64,000 nt of DNA from Vicinamibacterales bacterium (lineage in GTDB: Bacteria; Acidobacteriota; Vicinamibacteria; Vicinamibacterales; UBA2999). The notes under the pieces were generated by a model. It made no database searches and was not told the DNA's origin. It saw nothing but the letters and a program-made list of their open reading frames with translations. The translations under genes were made by a program, and so were the position numbers. Numbering within the stretch: the stretch's first letter is position 1; every line of letters begins with the position of its first letter. This document shows positions 29,309-38,194 of the stretch, piece by piece. The stretch covers positions 130,087 through 194,086 of the forward strand of contig JAWKHU010000038.1 in the NCBI GenBank assembly GCA_041394685.1, read 5' to 3'.

Positions 29309-29516
29309 AGGCGTGAGGGGGCGAGGGACACGGATTCTGCGTGAACCCTTCTGATGGTGTCAACCGAACGCGCCAACGTTACAGGAGCCGCGCGTGCGAT
29401 GCCATCGCAACCCGACGGCCTGGCGGGCCGGGCGCCGTCGTCGGCCCCCGTCCACGCACCTCCGGCGGATGTGCGAAGATGCCCGTCGCCACCTCGACCC
29501 ATCACGGACCACGACC

Positions 29517-31121
29517 ATGCGCCAACTCCTGACCCTCGCCGCCCTCGTGACCGCCTCCATCGCCCTGTCGGCGCAGACACCCGCGCGAACGACGACGCTG
29601 GCCGGGCTCGACCCCGCCACCATCGGCCGCATCCGGACCGAGGCCACGCGGAGCTCGCAGGCGGTGGATCACATCTGGTGGCTGTCGGAGGTGTACGGCC
29701 CGAGGCCCACCGGGTCGCCCGCCTTCCAGCAGGCGTCGGAGTGGGCGATGAAGCGCTTCTCCGACTGGGGACTGTCCAACGTGCACCAGGAGCGCTTCCC
29801 GTTCGGCCAGGGATGGACCATCGAACGGTTCTCCGCGCACCTGGTGGCGCCGCAGACGCAGGCCTTCATCGGCGCGCCGCGCTGGTACTCCCCGTCGACG
29901 GACGGTCCGGTGCTCGCCGACGTGGTCCACGTGGACGCTCGCAGCGAGGCCGACCTGGCGAAGTACGCCGGGCAGCTGCGCGGCAAGATCGCCGTGATGC
30001 AGCCGGCCCGGCGCGTCCGCCTGCTGGACGGCCGCATCGTGCTCCGCATGGGGGATCAGGAGTGGGACGAGGCGATGCGCACGCCGATCGAGCCCGCCTC
30101 GGGCGGAGGGCCCGGCCAGGCGTTCCGCAACGCGCAGGCCTTCCAGCAGGCCGTCCAGACGTTCCTCGTGGCGGAAGGCGCCGCCGTGCTGCTCGAGCGC
30201 GGGTCCGACAACGACGAGACGCCGGGCGGCAGCGACCTGCCGTGGATGCAGCAGCGTGTGGACGGTGGGACCGTGTTCCCGACCAATGGCGGCAGCCGCG
30301 ACCCGGATGCCCCGAAGCCTGTGCGCCGTCGGCCACGTTTCGCCGCAGCGCACCGGCAACTGCGACCGTGCGGCTTCGTCGATCGCGCCCGTGCGGATGG
30401 AAGTGAACATCCAGACCCGGTTCCATCCCGAGACGGACCCGGCCGGCAACGCCATCAACACGATCGCGGAGATCCCGGGCACCGACCGCCGAGTGTCGTG
30501 ATCCTCGGCGCCCACTTCGACAGCCATCCCTACGCGGGCGGCGCCACCGACAACGCGACGGGCTCCTCGGCCATGATGGAGGCGGTCCGGGCGTCATCCG
30601 TGCCCTCGGCCTGAAGCCGCGCCGCACGATTCGCGTCGCCCTGGGCCGCCGAGGAGCAGGGGCTGCTGGGATCGCGCGCCCATGCGCAGCGCCACTTCTA
30701 CGACCCGCAGACGGGGAGGTGAAGCCCGATCACGCGCGCGTGGCCGCGCATACTTCAACCTCGACAACGGCACGGCCGCATTCGCGGCGTGTGGGGGCAG
30801 GGCAACCTCGGCGCCATGCCCATCCTCGAGCAGTGGGGCGTCGGTGCAGGACCTCGGCTTCAAGGCGGTCAGCCCGAGGAGCGTGACCTCCACCGACCAC
30901 GTGCCGTTCGACGCGGCGGGCCTGCCCGGCTTCCAGTTCATCCAGGAACGGCTCGAGCATCAGGCGCGCACGCACCATCTGAACATGATAACCTTCGATC
31001 ACGTGCAGGCCGAGGACCTGTGCAGGGGCGCGGTGGCCGCCGTGTTCGCAGGGCATGCGGCCAACTGGCCGGAAAAGCTCCCGCGAAGGCGATGCCGGCG
31101 CGCACGGGCACCGGGCAGTAG
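29517..31121 (+). pseudogene. M28 family aminopeptidase, secreted; at least 4 frame breaks as sequenced
   Basis: Signal peptide is MRQLLTLAALVTASIALSAQ. Pieces in different frames are VRMEVNIQTRFHPETDPAGNAINTIAEIPGTD, VILGAHFDSHPYAGGATDNATGSSAMMEAVR, AYFNLDNGT, and SVTSTDHVPFDAAGLPGFQFIQERLEHQARTHH. Confidence 0.65.
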
Positions 31122-31136
31122 CACGACGCGCTCGCG

Positions 31137-31880
31137 TCAGGGACTCTTGCGCCCGCCCGGGTAGTGCACCTGCCGGTCGTGGTTGATGGGCGACGCCAGC
31201 AGACGCCGCCGGTCAGCCGCCCGGCGCGGGCAAGCCCAGCGCCTGACCATCAACGTCTGCTCGAAGCGCGTGGCGCCCTCGTCCTCGAGGAACAGCCGCT
31301 CGTTGCCCGCCCGGGGTGATGAGGAGGTGGCCAGTTGGAGTAGTGCACTTCGCCCAGCGCGTAGGACACGCCCGCGTGGCTGCGATGTGGCGGCGATTCG
31401 CGTGCCCGGCCCGTCGGGGAAGCGCAGGCGAGGCGCCGCGCCGGATCGAGATTTCAGCAGGGCCTCCGGCCCCGGTGGTCGCCGTAGAACTCCGTGTAGG
31501 AGAGCTTGAGGCAGTCGTCGAGGCGTGGTTTCGTTCTGGAGGATCTCGACCGCCGAGGCCAGCAGGCCCGGCACGCGGGTCGGGAAGCCGTTCCGGCAGA
31601 GGCCGGGCGCGTCCTGCAGGAGCATGTCGTCCTCGAAGAACGCCGCGATCTCCGCGTCGGTCTGCTGCGCAACGTGTGGCGCACCAGGCGCGGCCGCCCA
31701 TGATGCCCAGTTGCCGTCGCTCACGCGCGAACCTGTAGCGCGCCGCCAGCTCGCGGTTGGCCGTGTGCCGACTCGTCGGTCGAGCTGTCGAGCAGGATGC
31801 GGCGCGCCGCCTGCGACGAGCGCGGGCTCGACGGCCGACGCGCTCGAACCATCGCGCGAGCTGCGCCGGCGCGTCGGCGA
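31137..31880 (-). pseudogene. Hypothetical protein, fragmented over several frames (weak call)
   Basis: Coding-like pieces are ILADAPAQLARWFERVG, TANRELAARYRFAR, SDGNWASWAAAPGAPHVAQQTDAEIAAFFEDDMLLQDAPG, LDDCLKLSYTEFYGDH and the end ...PINHDRQVHYPGGRKSP. No family recognised. Confidence 0.3.
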
Positions 31881-31883
31881 GGA

Positions 31884-34690
31884 TTTACACCGCGAGATGT
31901 CCTGAGGCCGCCTCGACGGCCGGGGCCGGCGTCACCCGCGTGCCGCGCTTCACCCGGCACGTCCATGCCGCCGGCGCGAAAGCAGGTCCGCGGCCAACGG
32001 TCGAGCTCGTGCTCCCGGCCGACGGCCTCGAAGTCGCGGTCCGTGATCTCACACCAGTTCCACAGCCGGCCGCGCATCGTCTGCTCGAAGGTGTCGGTCG
32101 AGGCCGCGTAGTCGTGGGCCATGACCAGATCGCCGGTCTTCAGGTACGGCGCCAGGCGCGTCACGTCCCCGAGCTTGTCCGGGCCGTCGCACACGAGCAG
32201 CGTGATGCCGGGCCCCTGGATCTCGCGGGCGATCTCGGCGGCGGCAAATGGCTCGGCGACGTCCCGGCGACGCGCGTCCACATCCAGCGGCTCGAACAGC
32301 GCGCGCGCCGCCGTGTCGTGCACGCTGCGATCGACGGTGACGAACCGGGCGCCGGTGACGCGCGCGTACAGGTGGAAGAGCACGGTGAGACCGCCGACGC
32401 CCGTGCCCAGTTCCACGATCCGCGCCACGCGACGTCCCTCGTCCTCCAGCGTCCGCAGGAGGCGATCGATGGCGAGGATGGCGTGCCGGTTCTGCATCAT
32501 CGGCAGGCCGAAGAACGTGGTGTGGCCGCGCTCGACGTCGTCCGGGACCTCGATGGGGTCCGCCTGCGCGGTGCGCACGGGAAACGGCACGACCTCGACC
32601 GCGCGCCGTTCCGGCGCCTGGCGTCGCCCGGCTGCCCGGCCGGCGAGGAGATCCTGGAAGAACGGTCCCAGCAGGCCATCGCGCTCGACGAGGTAGTGCG
32701 CGTACCGCGACGGCTCCCGGTACGCGAGCACGGTGAACAGGCTCTCCTCGGTGCCCATGAGCCCGCGCGCCAGCGTGTCGCGCCGGAGCGCCTCGAACTG
32801 CGCCTCCACCGCCGGAATCTCCTCCACGCGTCCACCGAAGAAGCCGCCGCGAACCACGCGGTCCACCATGGACACGCCTGCCAGCGCCGCGAGCGCGGGA
32901 CGTGGGAAGCCGTGTATCTCGTCACCGTCCGGGTAGGGATACTCCACCCAGAGGAAGGGGCCCGCGGCGTCGGCCAGGCGGCCGGCCAGCGCCGGCGCCT
33001 CGAACACGGCGCCGGGCACCGTGTGCACGAGGCCGGCGTCCACCCAGAACAGGTGACTGGCGCCGAAGGCGTTCGCGCGCGCGGCCTCGGCCAGCCAGCG
33101 CATCTTCGAGAAGACGAGCGCGTTGTAGTGCGCCAGGGCGGCCTGCGGACTGTCGGCCAGCCAGCCGGCCTGCGCGAGCCAGTTCGCGTCGGCCCGAATG
33201 CGCTGGATGTCGGCAAAGCCGTCCCCGGCCTCGAGATCCTCGGGCCGGACGAGCTCGAGCCGCGTGTTGGAGGGGTGCCGGTGCCGCCACACCAGGGCTT
33301 CGAGCCGCGGTTCGGCGTACACCACCATGGGCAGCGGCGTCTCGAGCAGTTGCTCGAAGAGCGGCAGGTAGTGCGCCTCGAAGGACCGGCCGAAGCCGCC
33401 GCCGAGGGCCTCGCGGCCCAGGTCCACGAGCGCGGTCACCAGGGTGACGGGCGGGTGGAGCGGCAGCACCGGCCCGTCGATGCGCTCGAGCCAGCCGCGT
33501 GTGTCGCTGACCGGCCACACCGTCCAGCTCGCCGGCGTGCGGTCGGTCTCGAAGGCACAGCGGATGACGGCGTGCGCGCCCGCATCCGCCAGCAGCGCGC
33601 GCACGCCCTCGCGGTCCACGTCCTGCCGCACGATCTCCAGGCCGTGCGCGTCGTGTACGCCGACGTACCAGAAGTGATAGTCGTGCACGTCGGCCGGCAG
33701 CCGGCGCTTCTCGATGGCCAGGTCGAGCGCGTAGCCGCGGATGCGGTCGGCCCAGCCCTCGTCCGCCGGCGGGTTCGGCGGCTCGAAGCCCGCGCGGGTG
33801 TACTCCTGCGCGCGACGCCGCGAGATGCTGACGCCCGCATACGCCTCGTACTCGTCGAACGTCCGCGCGACACCCAGCCCCAACCGCCCCGGCTCCGGCT
33901 GCGCCAGGAAGGCGGCCACCTTGTCGAGGCTGGCCCGATCGCGCGCGTGCCACGCCATCTCCACCTCGGGACCGCCGTCGTGGTCGGTCCAGTGCTTGTG
34001 CGGACGATAGGCGCGCGTGTACTCGTGCCAGACGATGACGTGGCGGGGGTGGAAGAGGTCGTAGCCGTGCGTGAAGGCGCGCACGGCCAGGGTGATCTCC
34101 TCACCCGTGAAGTAGAGGTCCGGGTCGTACGGCACGTCCTCGACGAAGCGGCCGGGGGCGAACAGGAAGTGCGCCGAGAGGAAGCGGGCGCGGGCCGGGC
34201 GAGACAATCGCTGCCAGTCGCGCAGCTCGCCGGGCCGGAAGAGGATGATGCCCTCGCTGGTGAACCGATCGAAGTTCATCTGCATGGGGACGTGCTCGCG
34301 CGCGTCCTCGTGCTCGGGATCGAACGGTGTCGCGGAGGTGGTCAGGATGGGCCGATCGGACGGGCACGATCGAGCTCGTCGATCGCCAGCTCGTCCCACC
34401 CGTCCGCGAAGCGGTGGTGCGAGTCCAGCTGCAGGTAGTAGTCCTCGCCCGCGTAGCGACCCATGATCTCGGCGCGCGCCCAGCACGCGCCGCGGCTGGC
34501 CTGCCAGGGACGTCGATGATGCGGAACCGGCCGTCCGCCGTCCACGGCAGGGGCGCCTCGTCGGCGCCGTGCTGCCAGCAGACGCCGAAGCGCAGGCGCT
34601 CGGGATGCCGGGCGCGCGCGTGCAATCCTCCACCGTCGGCACGAGCTGCGGGTCGCGATACGCCGCAATCGAGACGAAGATGGTCCGCAC
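31884..34690 (-). pseudogene. Three-domain enzyme: GlcNAc-transferase-like (PF11397-type) + HtrL/YibB-like + CmcI/class I methyltransferase-like; at least 3 N-terminal frame breaks; 3' end uncertain (31884 TAA or 31721 TGA)
   Basis: A GTG start follows a GAGGAGG RBS that overlaps the upstream stop. The N-domain pieces are IFVSIAAYRDPQLVPTVEDC, RLRFGVCWQHG and YYLQLDSHHRFADGWD, spread over three frames. The middle domain has VTLVTALVDLGRE...HLFWVDAGLVH. The C-terminal domain has IVELGTGVGGLTVLFHLYA...LLVCDGPDK. Confidence 0.6.
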
Positions 34691-34698
34691 CGTCCTCC

Positions 34699-36624
34699 TC
34701 AGAAGACGTCCACGCGCATGTCGGCCGTCGCCGGACCGATGCCCGCCACGTTCATCGCCCGCACGCGCACGTAGTAGGTGCCCGGAGGCGCGTTGGCGGC
34801 CACCAGCGACTCCTGCGGCGTCATCATCGTGCCCACGTCCGTGAGACCGATCTGCGATCCCACCTCGACGATGTAGTTGTCAACGGGACCGCCGGCCGAT
34901 GGTGCCTGCCACGCAAGCGTGACGGTGCGGCCCGTCAGCAGGTGTGTGAGGCCGTCGGGCGCGCCCGGCGGGGCCACGCTGGTGGACAGGGTGACGGCGA
35001 CGTCGTTGGAGGGCGCACCGGTACCGCAGGCGTTGAGCCCGCGCACGCGCAGGTAATAGGTCCCCGGAGGGCCCGTCGCCACCAGCGCCGGCAGGCCACC
35101 GATGTTGCGGCGGCCGTGCTCGACGCCGCCCGGCGTGGCTCCCACTTCGAGCAGGTAGGCAGTGGCTCCAGGCGCGGCGCCCAGTGCGAGCGACATCTGC
35201 AGGCCGTCCACCGTGGCCGCCAGCGGTCCGGGCGCCTGCGGCTCCGACATGCACCCGGTAGCGCCCAGCGTCACCAGCAGCTCGCTCGATGGCGGGCCGA
35301 GCCCGTATGCGTTTCGTCCCCGCACGCGCACGTAGTAGGTGCCGGCCGGCGCGTCGGCGTCGAAGGTGGTCGCCGCTCCCGCCGTGGCCTGGACCAGCAG
35401 GTTGCTTGCTCCAGCCACCGACCCCGCCTCGATGATGTAGTCGGCCGGAAGGCCGCCGGTGGTCGGCGGCAGCCACGACAGCCGCACGCGGAACGTCGTT
35501 GCGGTTGGCGAGTCGCCCATGCGGGCGATGCGCCCCTGCGCAGGCTGGAGCTGGTCGAACCCGAACGTGCGAATCGCGAAGCCCCAGGCCGCGTCTGCAC
35601 CAGGCGCGGTCACCGCCGCATCGCCTTGCTGACCCGCGACGGCATAGGACAACAGGAGGGGCGCACCGGGCACGCGCGAGAAGGTGGGTGACGGCGTCGG
35701 CGTAGGTATTGGAGTCGCCGACGGCGTCGGCGTCGGTACGGGAGTCGCCGACGGCGTCGGTGTCGGCACCGGGCTGGCCGATGGCGTCGGTGTCGGCACC
35801 GGACTCGCCGATGGCGTCGGCGTCGGCACCGGACTCGCCGATGGCGTCGGCGTCGGCACCGGACTCGCCGATGGCGTGGGGGTCGGCACCGGACTCGCGG
35901 AGGGCGTCGGTGTAGGCACCGGGCTCGCTGACGGCGTCGGCGTCGGCGTGACGTCGAAGTGATTGAACACGAGCGCGGGGCCCGCCTGCCCACCGTTCTC
36001 GCGGGAGGCCAGGAACATGCCGCCGTCGCCGCTGGTGGTCGTCCGGCGGATCCGGAACGTCGTGGCGCCGCCGTTGACCAGGGCGGTGACGTCGAAGCTC
36101 AGCTCTCCCGGGCCGGTGTAGCCGCCCTCGGCGCCCGGGGGCGTCCCGGCCGCCGTGTTGTTGAAGGTCGCGTCTCCCTCCGTCTGCGTCGTCGAACACG
36201 CTTCGGCCGTGATTGTCTCGAACGTGGGCGTGAAGTCGATGACCACCTGCGTCACCAGCGTGACCTCGTCGGCCGGGCCGTAGGTGGACAGCAGGGTCGA
36301 GACGGCGGTGGGGTCGAAGATCACCAGCGCATCGGCGCTGTCGGCGCCCTGCACCTCCACCGTCAGCTGCCCGTCGGTGCCGAAGTTGGTATCGGGCTGG
36401 TCCGACCGCAGCGTGGTGTCGCCGGCCACGTCGATCTGCCGCAGGACGGCGTGCGCGGCCGTCACGCCGAAGAGCGGCCCCAGGGCCGCACCGCCGACGA
36501 TGCGACTGAGGTAGCTGACGCCGCCAGAGGCGGTGAAGCCGGTGCCGCCGACGAGCCGCTGCACGAAGCCGCGACGGGACAGCGGATAGCGAGGCCGGGG
36601 ATCGCCGGGGCCGGATGTCTCCAT
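34699..36624 (-). CDS. Tat-exported DNRLRE-domain protein with Pro/Thr/Ser decapeptide linker and three FN3 domains
   Basis: Intact 641 aa. Twin-arginine motif is [17 protein letters not shown]-like motif is [21 protein letters not shown]. There are nine [10 protein letters not shown] repeats. Three FN3 modules carry [13 protein letters not shown] signatures. Confidence 0.8.
35683..35949 (-). repeat. In-frame 30-bp tandem repeat x9 encoding (TPTPSA[ST]P[VI]P)n linker
   Basis: Read directly. Several units differ only by synonymous changes (gcgagt versus gccagc for Ala-Ser) while the peptide stays identical. Confidence 0.9.
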
Positions 36625-36772
36625 GGTCGGGCGTATTATCGGACGCCGCGCGGACGGACGGCAGGGCCTCGGCGCGCGCGCCGGAGAATTCAGTGCAAGC
36701 CACTTCGGACGCCGCCCGACGGCCCGCCGTCGATCATCCCTTGCGTCGAGGCCGGGGTTCGCAGTGCGCTCT

Positions 36773-36930
36773 GTGACCGTGACGTTCGTCGTTCATCACG
36801 CGCATCGGGCCCATCACCACCGTTCCACGAACGGCCCGGCCGGACTGCGCGCGTAACACGACGAAGACATTCACGACGATTCGTTTCACGCGAAGGCCCG
36901 CTGGGAAACCAGCGGGCCTTTGTCGTTTCT
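36773..36930 (+). promoter_or_regulatory. Candidate his-operon leader: His-rich leader ORF (GTG 36773 or 36779 to TAA 36854..36856) plus terminator = putative attenuator
   Basis: The codons read GTG ACC GTG ACG TTC GTC GTT CAT CAC GCG CAT CGG GCC CAT CAC CAC CGT ... TAA, giving (M)[26 protein letters not shown] with 6 His in 9 codons. A small hairpin CCGTTC-CAC-GAACGG (36820..36834) follows, then the terminator. It lies 22 nt upstream of the hisI ATG. Confidence 0.6.
36893..36930 (+). terminator. Intrinsic terminator hairpin upstream of hisI
   Basis: A 12-bp stem AAGGCCCGCTGG / CCAGCGGGCCTT with a GAAA tetraloop, followed by TTGTCGTTTCT. Confidence 0.7.
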
Positions 36931-36951
36931 GGCCGGCAACCGGGAGTGGTT

Positions 36952-37312
36952 ATGGATTTCAGCAAGCTGGACGGGCTCATCCCCGCCGTCGTGCAGGACC
37001 GCACGAGCGGCGAGGTGTTGATGGTGGGTTTCATGAACGACGAGGCCTGGGCGATCACGCAGCGCACCGGGTACGTCACCTTCTTCAGCCGCACGCGCAA
37101 CACGCTCTGGACCAAGGGCGAGACCTCTGGCAACCGCCTGGCGGTAGCGGCAGATCTGGACCGACTGCGACGACGACACGGTGCTGGTGAAGGTGGACCG
37201 GGAAGGCGACGGAAACGTGTGCCACACCGGGCAGCGCTCGTGCTTCTACACGGAAGTGCCGCTGACCGGCGGCGGGCAGCCGGCGGCGGGCGCGGCGGGA
37301 GCAGCCCGATGA
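36952..37312 (+). CDS. hisI: Phosphoribosyl-AMP cyclohydrolase, monofunctional (one frame break near 37150)
   Basis: GGGAG RBS. The N-terminal part is [61 protein letters not shown]. In the next frame it continues [29 protein letters not shown]. The stop TGA overlaps the hisG ATG (ATGA). Confidence 0.8.
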
Positions 37313-38194
37313 AGCTGCGGCTCGGCATTCCCAAGGGCTCGCTCGAGCAGGCCACCGTCCAGCTCTTCCAGCGGGCGGGCTTCCAGGTGCTGGTCTCGTC
37401 GCGCTCCTACTTCCCCTCCATCGACGACCCCGAGATCGAGTGCATGCTGATCCGCGCGCAGGAGATGGCCCGCTACGTGGCCGACGGCATCCTCGACGCG
37501 GGCCTCACCGGCTTCGACTGGATTCGCGAGCACGAGATCGGCCACCCCGAGCAACCACCGCTGGTGCCGTCGCCGACCTCATCTACTCGAAACAGAGCTT
37601 CGGCAAGGTGCGCTGGGTGCTGGCCGCGCCGGAGGCTCCCCGTTCCAGACGGCAAAGGACTTCGAGGGCAAGCGCATCGCGACCGAGCTGGTGCGCGTGA
37701 CACGCGACTACTTCCAGCGCCACGGCGTGAACGTGGACGTCGAGTTCTCGTGGGGCGCCACCGAGGTCAAGCCGCCCGTGCTGGCCGACGCCATCGTCGA
37801 GGCCACCGAAACCGGGTCCACCCTGCGGGCCAACCGGCTCCGCATCCTGGACACGATCCTGGAGTCCAACACCCAGCTGATTGCCAACGACACAGCCATG
37901 GCCGACGACTGGAAGCGGACGAAGATCGAGAACCTCGCACTGCTGCTCAAGGCCGCGATAGAGGCACAGGGCCGCGTGGGGCTGATGCTCAACGTGCCGA
38001 AGGCGAGCCTCGACGAGGTGCTGGGCCTGCTGCCCGCCCTGCAGCGGCCCACGGTGAGCGCGCTCAGCGACCCCGAGTGGGTGGCCGTCAACACCATCCT
38101 GGAAGAGAAGACCGCGCGCGACCTGATCCCCAAGCTGAAGGCCGCCGGCGGACAAGGCATCGTGGAGTATCCGCTGACGAAGATCGTCATGTAG
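37309..38194 (+). CDS. hisG: ATP phosphoribosyltransferase, long form (two single-base frame breaks near 37540 and 37640)
   Basis: The protein is [20 protein letters not shown]...[15 protein letters not shown], then [22 protein letters not shown], then [25 protein letters not shown]...GLMLNVPK...EYPLTKIVM. The length of 886 nt equals 888 minus 2. Confidence 0.8.

Follow-up and report, generated by a model that had tools for sequence, protein, structure and literature searches.

The DNA analysed here is a 64,000-nt stretch (hereafter the window) of contig JAWKHU010000038.1, from a soil bacterium of the Vicinamibacterales (Acidobacteriota) whose DNA has a GC content of about 71-72%. Near the middle of the window, the reverse strand carries two adjoining genes; the upstream gene encodes a 641-aa secreted protein with a Pro/Thr/Ser repeat linker, referred to here as the partner, and the downstream gene encodes a multi-domain enzyme that begins with a glycosyltransferase domain (Table 1). 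A preliminary description of this locus, drawn from the sequence, had proposed as the target of the enzyme the upstream-encoded protein, or a glycan bound by it, with modification taking place in the cytoplasm prior to export. The association of related enzymes with Pro/Thr-rich (PT-rich) neighbours, the conservation of the gene pair and a fold resembling that of polypeptide N-acetylgalactosaminyl (GalNAc) transferases all support this proposal, and on such comparative and structural grounds the enzyme probably sugar-coats its secreted neighbour.

At the junction of the two genes the coding strand reads TTC TGA GGAGGACG GTG, with the TGA at 34701-34699, GGAGGA at 34698-34693 and the GTG at 34690, in agreement with the initial report of a stop codon lying within the ribosome-binding site of the next gene. 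The stop codon of the partner overlaps a Shine-Dalgarno-like run, GAGGAGGA, 8 nt ahead of the GTG of the enzyme. Orthologous junctions also have short gaps, but none has a stop-overlapping Shine-Dalgarno like that of the window; judged from the junctions compared, the arrangement is particular to the window's lineage. A scan of 30900-37100 for promoters and terminators gave no result, and such a scan says little for an acidobacterium of 72% GC.

Table 1. Positions of the gene pair, its domains and the disrupted neighbouring genes in the window. Residue ranges of the enzyme domains are those of the full-length relative P0004; GC3, G+C content at third codon positions; GT-A and GT2, glycosyltransferase fold and family; SAM, S-adenosylmethionine.
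Feature	Residues	Position	Strand	Basis
Partner gene, 641-aa secreted protein with RR-type (twin-arginine) signal, DNRLRE/CBM96 domain, Pro/Thr/Ser linker and three FN3 domains	1-641	34699..36624	-	Open reading frame
Signal region	1-59	36448..36624	-	Sequence reading; S-R-R-G-F-V at aa 16-21, A-H-A at aa 57-59
DNRLRE/CBM96-type domain	66-220	35965..36429	-	PF24517 and NF033679 profiles
Pro/Thr/Ser linker, proposed glycosylation target	228-307	35690..35947	-	Tandem Repeats Finder
Non-aligning stretch of low GC3		35545..35700	-	GC3 plot, orthologue alignment
Three FN3 domains	~366-641	34702..35529	-	Pfam fn3, E = 5.5e-14
Junction TGA-GGAGGACG-GTG		34688..34701	-	Sequence reading
Complete enzyme gene, reconstructed	~1,185 aa	31137..34690	-	Relatives, frameshift-aware alignment, GC3 frame plot
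Enzyme domain 1, PF11397 (GT60-like) GT-A glycosyltransferase	~14-300	33821..34681	-	Pfam, motif, model
Enzyme domain 2, small and beta-rich	329-418	33470..33739	-	Strands of the AlphaFold model
Enzyme domain 3, HtrL/YibB (WlaTC)-like	426-700	32624..33448	-	PF09612
Enzyme domain 4, class-I SAM methyltransferase fold	730-928	31940..32536 (approximate)	-	Motif, model
Enzyme domain 5, GT2-like GT-A glycosyltransferase	946-1199	31137..31885	-	PF00535, EDD
Broken neighbours hisI, hisG and M28 peptidase		36950-37700 and 29394-31164	+	Pfam profile breaks

The identification of the partner as a secreted DNRLRE-PT-3xFN3 protein at 36624..34699 was borne out by its 641-aa open reading frame (ORF) and by matches to the CBM96/DNRLRE and fn3 profiles. 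PF24517 (CBM96) scored 31.1 bits on the window partner and 48.2 bits on its orthologue from locus L001, against a cut-off of 26, and the NCBIfam DNRLRE profile NF033679 scored 34.0 bits on the window partner, exactly equal to its cut-off of 34. In the alignment, each of the three FN3-like units closes with GTYY[VL]RVR..N..G.GP. The N-terminus consists of a twin-arginine (RR) motif in LSRRGFVQ, a weakly hydrophobic stretch rich in G, T and S, and an AxA site (AAHA); this RR-containing region is invariant in three aligned orthologues. The linker DNA is a 30-nt tandem repeat of 8.6 copies that encodes TPTPSA[ST]P[VI]P, so that the nine repeats counted at first are eight full units and a partial one. 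Of 90 aa, 35 are P (39%), 21 are T and 15 are S, and the linker is the sole genuine PT-rich coding stretch within the 64-kb window. Past the linker, ahead of the first FN3 domain, GC3 drops to 0.73-0.77, and the stretch concerned (35545-35700) begins like the start of the orthologues' first FN3 unit; compensating indel errors or a partial duplication of the FN3 start may lie behind it, and a frameshift-aware alignment of the partner gene left its mismatch to the orthologues unexplained.

NCBI annotates the enzyme gene with a truncated product of 892 aa only (P0001), which is 100% identical to the enzyme ORF of the window. When a stitched 931-aa reconstruction of the window enzyme was used as query, 27 full-length relatives (P0002-P0029; 1,167-1,210 aa, 50-71% identity) covered the whole query and reached about 260 aa past it; the frameshift-aware alignment of P0002 spans window positions 34699..31140. 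The stop that had been taken as the end of the enzyme, at 31884, is an artefact of frame breaks, and homologous coding runs on to 31137. Domain boundaries were drawn from Pfam, NCBIfam and an AlphaFold model of P0004 (mean predicted local distance difference test score, pLDDT, 83.6). The three domains first recognised in a protein of some 930 aa, namely PF11397-like, HtrL-like and methyltransferase, are present, within an enzyme of five parts in which the beta-rich and GT2-like domains had been missed.

Domain 1 gave by far the clearest assignment: PF11397 matched two frame fragments of the window gene at E = 2.6e-38 and 1.5e-15 (132.8 and 58 bits; cut-off 21) and P0004 at E = 4.7e-67 (227.4 bits), and its DxH motif, D100-S101-H102 (LQLDSHHRF), at about 34430 in the window, is invariant in the 27 full-length relatives. 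Domain 2 always accompanies domain 1 and may bind the acceptor; the two are referred to together as the N-module (P0004 residues 14-420), which is exactly the span of the short-form relatives. Domain 3 matched PF09612 with 26.3 bits in the window ORF and 34.2 bits in P0004 (cut-off 24.1) over profile positions 3-155 of 267, and TIGR02192 with 47.6 bits, far under the equivalog cut-off of 264.9; it is a putative second glycosyltransferase, a relative of YibB rather than its equivalent.

Domain 4 carries a glycine-rich IVELGTGVGG motif, and the P0004 model alternates strands and helices at residues 737-928. Its matches to Methyltransf_23/24 were sub-threshold only, the family profile reached PDB entry 1yb2 at E = 0.02, and the nearest named neighbour in Foldseek was the M. 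hassiacum sugar O-methyltransferase MeT1 (6g80; E = 3.7e-6, TMt 0.53); the domain is a putative sugar O-methyltransferase. The CmcI-like label attached to it earlier did not survive, as PF04989 gave no match at E <= 1. Domain 5 has the signature YNAP...LLDNSTD...FFEDDML, in which E1037-D1038-D1039 is invariant among the relatives; PF00535 matched it marginally in P0004 (24.1 bits against a cut-off of 23.3), and in the window it is legible only once frameshifts are corrected. A PDB search with the full-length family profile returned weak methyltransferase matches only. Full-length Foldseek hits could not be assigned to domains because the search mixes domains and gives no query coordinates, a matter that was resolved by modelling the N-module separately.

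Neither an export signal nor a transmembrane segment was found in the enzyme, whose maximum Kyte-Doolittle value over 19 residues is 1.2-1.5; in the models the first GT-A strand starts as early as residue 4-15, too near the N-terminus for a signal peptide to fit ahead of it. By sequence and model, the enzyme is cytoplasmic and soluble. Pfam detected a PqqD-like domain in neither the window enzyme nor P0004, and no GT-B domain of the GtfA/GtfB type or heptosyltransferase domain in the enzyme; genes of these last kinds, or for accessory Sec or type V export, were likewise absent around the pair.

As assembled, the enzyme gene contains at least 16 frame breaks and two in-frame stops when aligned to P0002 in a frameshift-aware manner. 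Three N-terminal breaks reported previously, near 34620, 34510 and 34370, were seen again both in this alignment and in the GC3 frame plot, and form part of this larger total: the stretch from 34370 to 31990 is free of breaks, and 31990-31200 holds at least 13 of them together with the two stops, the domain 5 region alone accounting for at least 11 breaks and 2 stops. The clustering of the breaks at both ends of the gene, and the truncated NCBI product, are what one would expect if the gene were a true pseudogene and the pair a decaying remnant. The breaks are also not specifically associated with homopolymers, a test made uninformative by a background of 0.82 runs per 25 nt. Against decay, the essential biosynthetic genes hisI and hisG and the downstream M28 peptidase gene are broken alike: in hisI (PRA-CH) the reading frame changes exactly at Pfam profile position 43/44, the split in hisG falls between profile positions 27 and 53, and the M28 peptidase match ends at profile position 46 of 193. 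Indel errors thus extend well beyond the enzyme gene as a property of the assembly, and the intact S8 peptidase and hisD ORFs near the pair show that they come in patches. Moreover, GC3 in the correct frame remains at 0.85-1.0 along the enzyme gene save near breaks, and there is no sign of decay at the amino-acid level, with 71% identity to P0002 over the stitched 931 aa. Because the neighbouring genes are broken in the same way, the frame breaks are most probably sequencing or assembly indels; the worry about a pseudogene, raised in the preliminary description, is weakened by the like splitting of the adjacent hisI and hisG, and we consider decay of the gene highly improbable.

We then consider the conservation of the pair, which had been put forward as a check on the proposal. 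Among relatives in the Vicinamibacterales and Acidobacteriota the pair is kept with gaps of 0-18 nt between partner and enzyme. At L001, L002 and L003 (enzyme P0004), L004 (P0008), L006 and L048, an orthologue of the FN3 partner, 47-48% identical to the window protein and with the same RR-containing N-terminus, ends 11-17 nt ahead of the enzyme gene. At L010, L011 and L053 the gene that ends 0-8 nt before the enzyme gene encodes a variant sharing this signal and having a long Pro/Thr/Ser region, with two partner-type genes in tandem at L011. In a Vicinamibacterales metagenome-assembled genome (MAG; L007) the partner lies 4.7 kb upstream of the enzyme. Since the flanking genes differ from locus to locus, the pair behaves as a two-gene module. 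The L007 enzyme (L007:7351-11805) is a longer version of 1,484 aa with an extra C-terminal region of about 300 aa, and a gene for UDP-N-acetylglucosamine (UDP-GlcNAc) 2-epimerase (L007:6091-7089; PF02350, E = 2e-54) lies directly upstream of it.

The N-module is not confined to five-part enzymes; it occurs alone and in other fusions too, in a family of 2,361 clusters at 50% identity (E <= 1e-30), with at least 573 matches at about 40% identity in viral contigs (IMG/VR). In order to gain insight into the surroundings of this module, 127 genome or metagenome loci with N-module relatives (119 non-redundant) and 80 viral-contig loci were sampled. A partner was scored when a PT-rich ORF (at least 30 aa) lay on the same strand and ended no more than 400 nt upstream; the far flanks of the same loci supplied the background rate (0.0525 per kb in genomes and metagenomes, 0.060 per kb in viral contigs). 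Such an ORF was present at 29 of the 101 genome and metagenome loci with sufficient upstream flank and at 22 of 75 viral contigs, where about 1% was expected; for the genome and metagenome set the binomial P is about 3e-33. Within 1.5 kb on either side, a PT-rich ORF was found at 46 of 112 loci in the former set and 33 of 75 in the latter.

Partners combining an RR motif with a PT-rich stretch occur in Acidobacteriota, Myxococcota, Actinomycetota, Alphaproteobacteria, Bacteroidota and Verrucomicrobiota. Examples not homologous to the FN3 protein come from Myxococcaceae (L012), Acidimicrobiaceae (L015), Mycobacteriaceae (L016), Caulobacterales (L018), a metagenome locus (L052), an alphaproteobacterium (L030), Lewinellaceae (L027), Verrucomicrobia (L029), and L005, L049 and L074. 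Several of these partners are just a signal followed by PT repeats; that of L029 has 234 aa, nearly all of them PT repeats, and that of L074 has a Hint domain. In the approximately 819 kb lying more than 1.5 kb away from the enzyme genes, no unrelated ORF combined an RR motif with a PT-rich stretch. No Sec-type signal was found among the upstream partners, which bear either an RR-type signal or no signal at all; the signal-less, PT-rich ones include an FN3-BNR protein (L014), Rv2525c-like glycoside-hydrolase proteins (L017 and L022) and many phage proteins.

Some of the short-form enzymes carry a C-terminal PqqD-like domain (25.2 bits at L018, 25.6 at L052, and 21.6 at both L015 and L030; cut-off 23.4). 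PqqD-like domains are peptide-recognition elements, and these short forms adjoin small RR+PT genes whose leader is conserved across phyla as D..(D/H)P.RR.F(V/I).Y(L/I)V.(G/A).F.AP. In the alphaproteobacterial MAG of L030 (L030:9564-13700), seven tandem genes for proteins of about 100-170 aa lie downstream of such an enzyme; they share a near-identical leader, MDSSSDEMDPRRRAFIRYLVAAGFSAPLISGGAQSAFA, and a Pro/Thr-rich tail ending in PPSVSP, and look like a precursor-peptide array.

To characterise the N-module on its own, the short-form relative P0101 was modelled (AlphaFold, pLDDT 90). Its top 50 Foldseek matches in the PDB were all polypeptide GalNAc-transferases (best E = 1.7e-11), namely human T1, T2, T4, T10 and T12, Drosophila PGANT9 and Toxoplasma GalNAc-T3. 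The N-module shares with these GT27 enzymes the GT-A fold, the DxH motif and a second small domain after the catalytic one, and its presumed acceptors are, like theirs, Pro/Thr/Ser-rich tandem repeats. It differs in that identity is only 12-17%, that the window enzyme is a soluble cytoplasmic protein rather than a type-II membrane protein of the Golgi, that its domain 2 is classed as beta-rich and not as a ricin-type lectin, and that it is fused to three further enzymatic domains; it is known, moreover, from sequence and models. GT60 is confined to prokaryotes and protists, and GT60 and GT27 are sister families that O-glycosylate Ser/Thr of polypeptides, with DxH replacing DxD (PMC7185993). 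In a literature search that left subscription journals mostly outside its coverage, we found no characterised member of the bacterial PF11397/GT60 enzymes and no paper on them, nor any paper on Tat (twin-arginine translocation) export of cytoplasmically glycosylated proteins or on a combination of peptide-recognition element, glycosyltransferase and Tat.

We take PF11397 to be GT60, the Skp1 hydroxyproline GlcNAc-transferase included. GT60 enzymes comprise this transferase (Gnt1) of Dictyostelium and Toxoplasma and the mucin Thr GlcNAc-transferase of Trypanosoma cruzi. Gnt1 resembles the window enzyme in being a cytoplasmic polypeptide glycosyltransferase with a strong match to the same Pfam family, and its product is extended by multi-domain cytoplasmic transferases; here, by contrast, the presumed substrate is not Skp1 but a secreted repeat protein encoded by the adjacent gene. 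The likeness raises the question of whether the acceptor might be hydroxyproline, with a prolyl 4-hydroxylase acting first and the GT60 domain then adding GlcNAc, as in the eukaryotic Skp1 pathway. The high proline content of the linker would fit, as would a 2-oxoglutarate (2OG)-Fe(II) oxygenase gene beside the PT partner, which was encountered at L027 only. The ORFs adjoining the pair in the window, L001, L004, L006 and L011, however, include no 2OG-Fe(II) oxygenase, and no prolyl hydroxylase stands beside the pair; the structural neighbours of the N-module are Ser/Thr-directed GalNAc-transferases. Hydroxyproline as the acceptor therefore appears very unlikely to us. At L027, a Lewinellaceae MAG, the oxygenase (L027:5374-6000, minus strand; PF13640, E = 1e-6) adjoins an RR+PT partner that has a weak match to a type-IX secretion C-terminal tail and is divergent from the enzyme gene; this oxygenase hints at a hydroxyproline route in some lineages.

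The reading that we favour, and hold to be rather probable, is that the linker of the partner is O-glycosylated in the cytoplasm in a manner resembling the mucin type, that the glycan is extended and methylated, and that the product is then exported by Tat. Domain 1 (GT60/GT27-like, with DxH, and probably retaining) would attach N-acetylhexosamine from a UDP-sugar in the cytoplasm, the acceptors being the Thr/Ser residues of the TPTPSA[ST]P[VI]P repeats in the upstream-encoded partner and, less likely, hydroxyproline. The HtrL-like and C-terminal GT2-like domains would lengthen the sugar, and the SAM methyltransferase domain would cap the glycan by O-methylation. The folded partner with its bulky glycosylated linker could then leave via Tat, a route accepting folded bulky cargo; outside the cell, the glycosylated linker would hold the DNRLRE/CBM96 domain and the three FN3 domains apart as an extended spacer that resists proteases. 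We infer the acceptor, the sugar donors, the order of the steps, the Tat route and the role of the glycan from the domains and their neighbourhood. The preliminary description was right that the enzyme lacks an export signal, and saw a difficulty in its having a substrate taken to be exported; with partners that are RR-type or signal-less and never Sec-type, the combination of a cytoplasmic enzyme and an exported substrate would, on this view, be the point of the system, a consistent feature rather than a paradox.

Several observations weigh against this account, and the first of these concern export. The canonical Tat signal combines an S/T-R-R-x-F-[LVI] motif with a weakly hydrophobic stretch and then an AxA site, elements that the window partner possesses and on which the earlier claim of Tat export stands; in the other direction, the Pfam profile TAT_signal (PF10518) did not match the window partner even at E <= 10, and the assignment of its RR region as a Tat signal is for this reason made at the level of motifs only. 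When nine partner N-termini were examined with this profile, eight had no match and the L049 partner had a weak, sub-threshold one (E = 0.018); the profile is so short that genuine signals often escape it. In the window partner RR and AxA also stand unusually far apart, at 38 residues, and we know of no precedent for Tat export of a protein with a glycosylated, disordered linker of about 90 residues.

These points bear on a variant in which the enzyme modifies the PT partner but the RR N-terminus, instead of being a Tat signal, serves the enzyme as a leader for recognition or anchors the partner in the membrane, the protein taking another export route or residing elsewhere. Besides the missing profile match and the long RR-to-AxA stretch, this variant would account for the unusual conservation of the N-terminal region of the small partners across phyla and for the PqqD-like, leader-binding domain of the matching short-form enzymes. 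The window enzyme, though, has no PqqD domain, the N-terminal architecture is canonical for Tat, the RR motif recurs on non-homologous partners in six phyla, and one partner, that of L049, does match TAT_signal weakly. We judge the variant distinctly unlikely; it is compatible with glycosylation itself, and the roles of leader and Tat signal are not mutually exclusive.

A second group of observations concerns what the enzyme makes. Domains of the HtrL-like, GT2-like and methyltransferase kinds typically belong to the synthesis of lipooligosaccharides and polysaccharides; the low-GC, four-domain distant relatives L028, L050 and L051 have no PT partner, and L028 stands among sugar-nucleotide-like genes, as judged from ORF N-terminal sequences alone. 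The enzyme might accordingly make a free or lipid-linked, methylated oligo- or polysaccharide that the secreted CBM96/FN3 protein binds or organises, the pairing of the genes then reflecting a shared pathway. That CBM96 is a carbohydrate-binding module would agree with such a role, and in full-length Foldseek searches the model also resembled the dual-glycosyltransferase polymerases chondroitin synthase and LARGE1. Yet no flippase, polymerase, initiating phosphoglycosyltransferase or exporter is encoded by the ORFs adjoining the pair in the window, L001 and L004. From phylum to phylum, and in phages, the neighbours have a Pro/Thr-rich stretch in common rather than a domain that binds carbohydrate, and the N-module is specifically like transferases that act on polypeptides, with the peptide-recognition domain PqqD present in some short forms. 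Synthesis of a free glycan thus seems unlikely to us.

The remaining reservations are of number and of sequence quality. A PT-rich neighbour was found, by the criteria used, at only about 30-40% of N-module loci, and the binomial P overstates independence because the loci are phylogenetically related; as assembled, moreover, the window gene cannot encode the full enzyme, and its breaks are clustered and not homopolymer-specific.

The proposed cytoplasmic O-glycosylation of the linker can be placed beside several known systems. Dedicated glycosylation is familiar from the serine-rich-repeat adhesins (GtfA/GtfB with accessory SecA2/Y2), from AIDA-I/Aah, from TibA/TibC heptosylation and from HMW1/HMW1C. 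There, too, substrate and transferase are encoded side by side, the repeats receive their modification before they leave the cytoplasm, multi-domain enzymes extend the sugar and a special export route serves the bulky glycosylated cargo; the resemblance is one of logic only. The adhesin enzymes are GT-B transferases (GtfA/B), heptosyltransferases or GT41 members acting on other acceptor repeats, and their substrates use Sec, accessory Sec or two-partner secretion, in contrast to the twin-arginine signal found here. In the mycobacteriophages Che8, Corndog and Myrna, virions are glycosylated with phage-encoded glycosyltransferases and methyltransferases. These sets likewise modify structural proteins in the cytoplasm, and N-module relatives are abundant in viral contigs beside PT-rich proteins; the window system differs in being chromosomal and in having a substrate with an export signal. 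Secreted bacterial and phage proteins commonly contain Pro/Thr-rich linkers, whose glycosylation is known mainly from actinobacterial systems of the Pmt type, which act outside the cytoplasm.

A dedicated cytoplasmic glycosyltransferase encoded beside a secreted repeat substrate is thus known already; the enzyme family, the type of acceptor, the presumed export by Tat and the extension to phages would, on sequence and models, be new. The recurrence of the arrangement in six bacterial phyla and many phages points to an undescribed form of sugar-coating inside the cell prior to export. A wider formulation, which we regard as a real possibility and hold tentatively, is that a GT27-related family carries out cytoplasmic mucin-type-like O-glycosylation of Pro/Thr-rich repeats in bacteria and phages, that secreted substrates use Tat since a glycosylated chain cannot pass Sec, that the twin-arginine leader of the short-form substrates serves at the same time as the element recognised by the PqqD-like domain, and that the window enzyme is the most elaborate version, producing a methylated oligosaccharide on the linker of its partner. 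If glycosylation of the linker is confirmed, the system would be the equivalent, in bacteria and phages, of mucin-type O-glycosylation, performed by relatives of the animal initiating enzymes; it would offer, to our knowledge, the first case of Tat exporting a glycoprotein of cytoplasmic making; and a function would be gained for a large uncharacterised family that reaches far into viral contigs. As a simple two-gene system it could be tested directly in E. coli, and it might provide a tool for placing defined O-glycans on engineered PT tags.

Some further features of the partners and enzymes were observed. In Azospirillum lipoferum (L013:11064-13169), a signal-less tail-sheath-like protein (PF17482, E = 1.6e-10) with a PT-rich insertion is encoded 1.8 kb from the enzyme, and at L017, L019, L021, L031 and L065 a PT-rich stretch is present in large proteins (about 1,100-1,450 aa) whose genes end no more than 6 nt from the start of the enzyme; the system may decorate contractile-tail or lysis-related proteins too. 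A 'baseplate J-like' identity considered for the partners at L017, L019, L021 and L031 was not confirmed by Pfam, which recognised only the Rv2525c-like glycoside-hydrolase domain, in L017 as the one examined of these five large partners, and matches of phage partners to the PHROG family phrog_15511 were set aside, as they lay in low-complexity PT sequence. In the viral contigs (L128-L207, IMG/VR) and in low-GC freshwater and marine metagenomes (L075-L127), the enzyme gene is often downstream of a large signal-less repeat protein of the TPTPT type; L136 and L090 are seemingly one and the same contig of 107,651 bp.

The partners at L010:6424-7998, L053:184-1986 and L015:9479-10240 end in strongly charged tails with many His, Asp, Arg and Lys residues (such as KKHHGDDDDDDHDHDRGRDHDRGGDHDRDKDHDRDK), as do those at L052:7482-8258, L016:11240-11758 and L011:4721-6322; metal binding is one possibility for these tails. 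Among the enzymes, P0121-P0127 and P0130 are giant members of 1,088-2,461 aa with up to four stretches matching the N-module profile, which suggests that they hold tandem copies of the transferase module.

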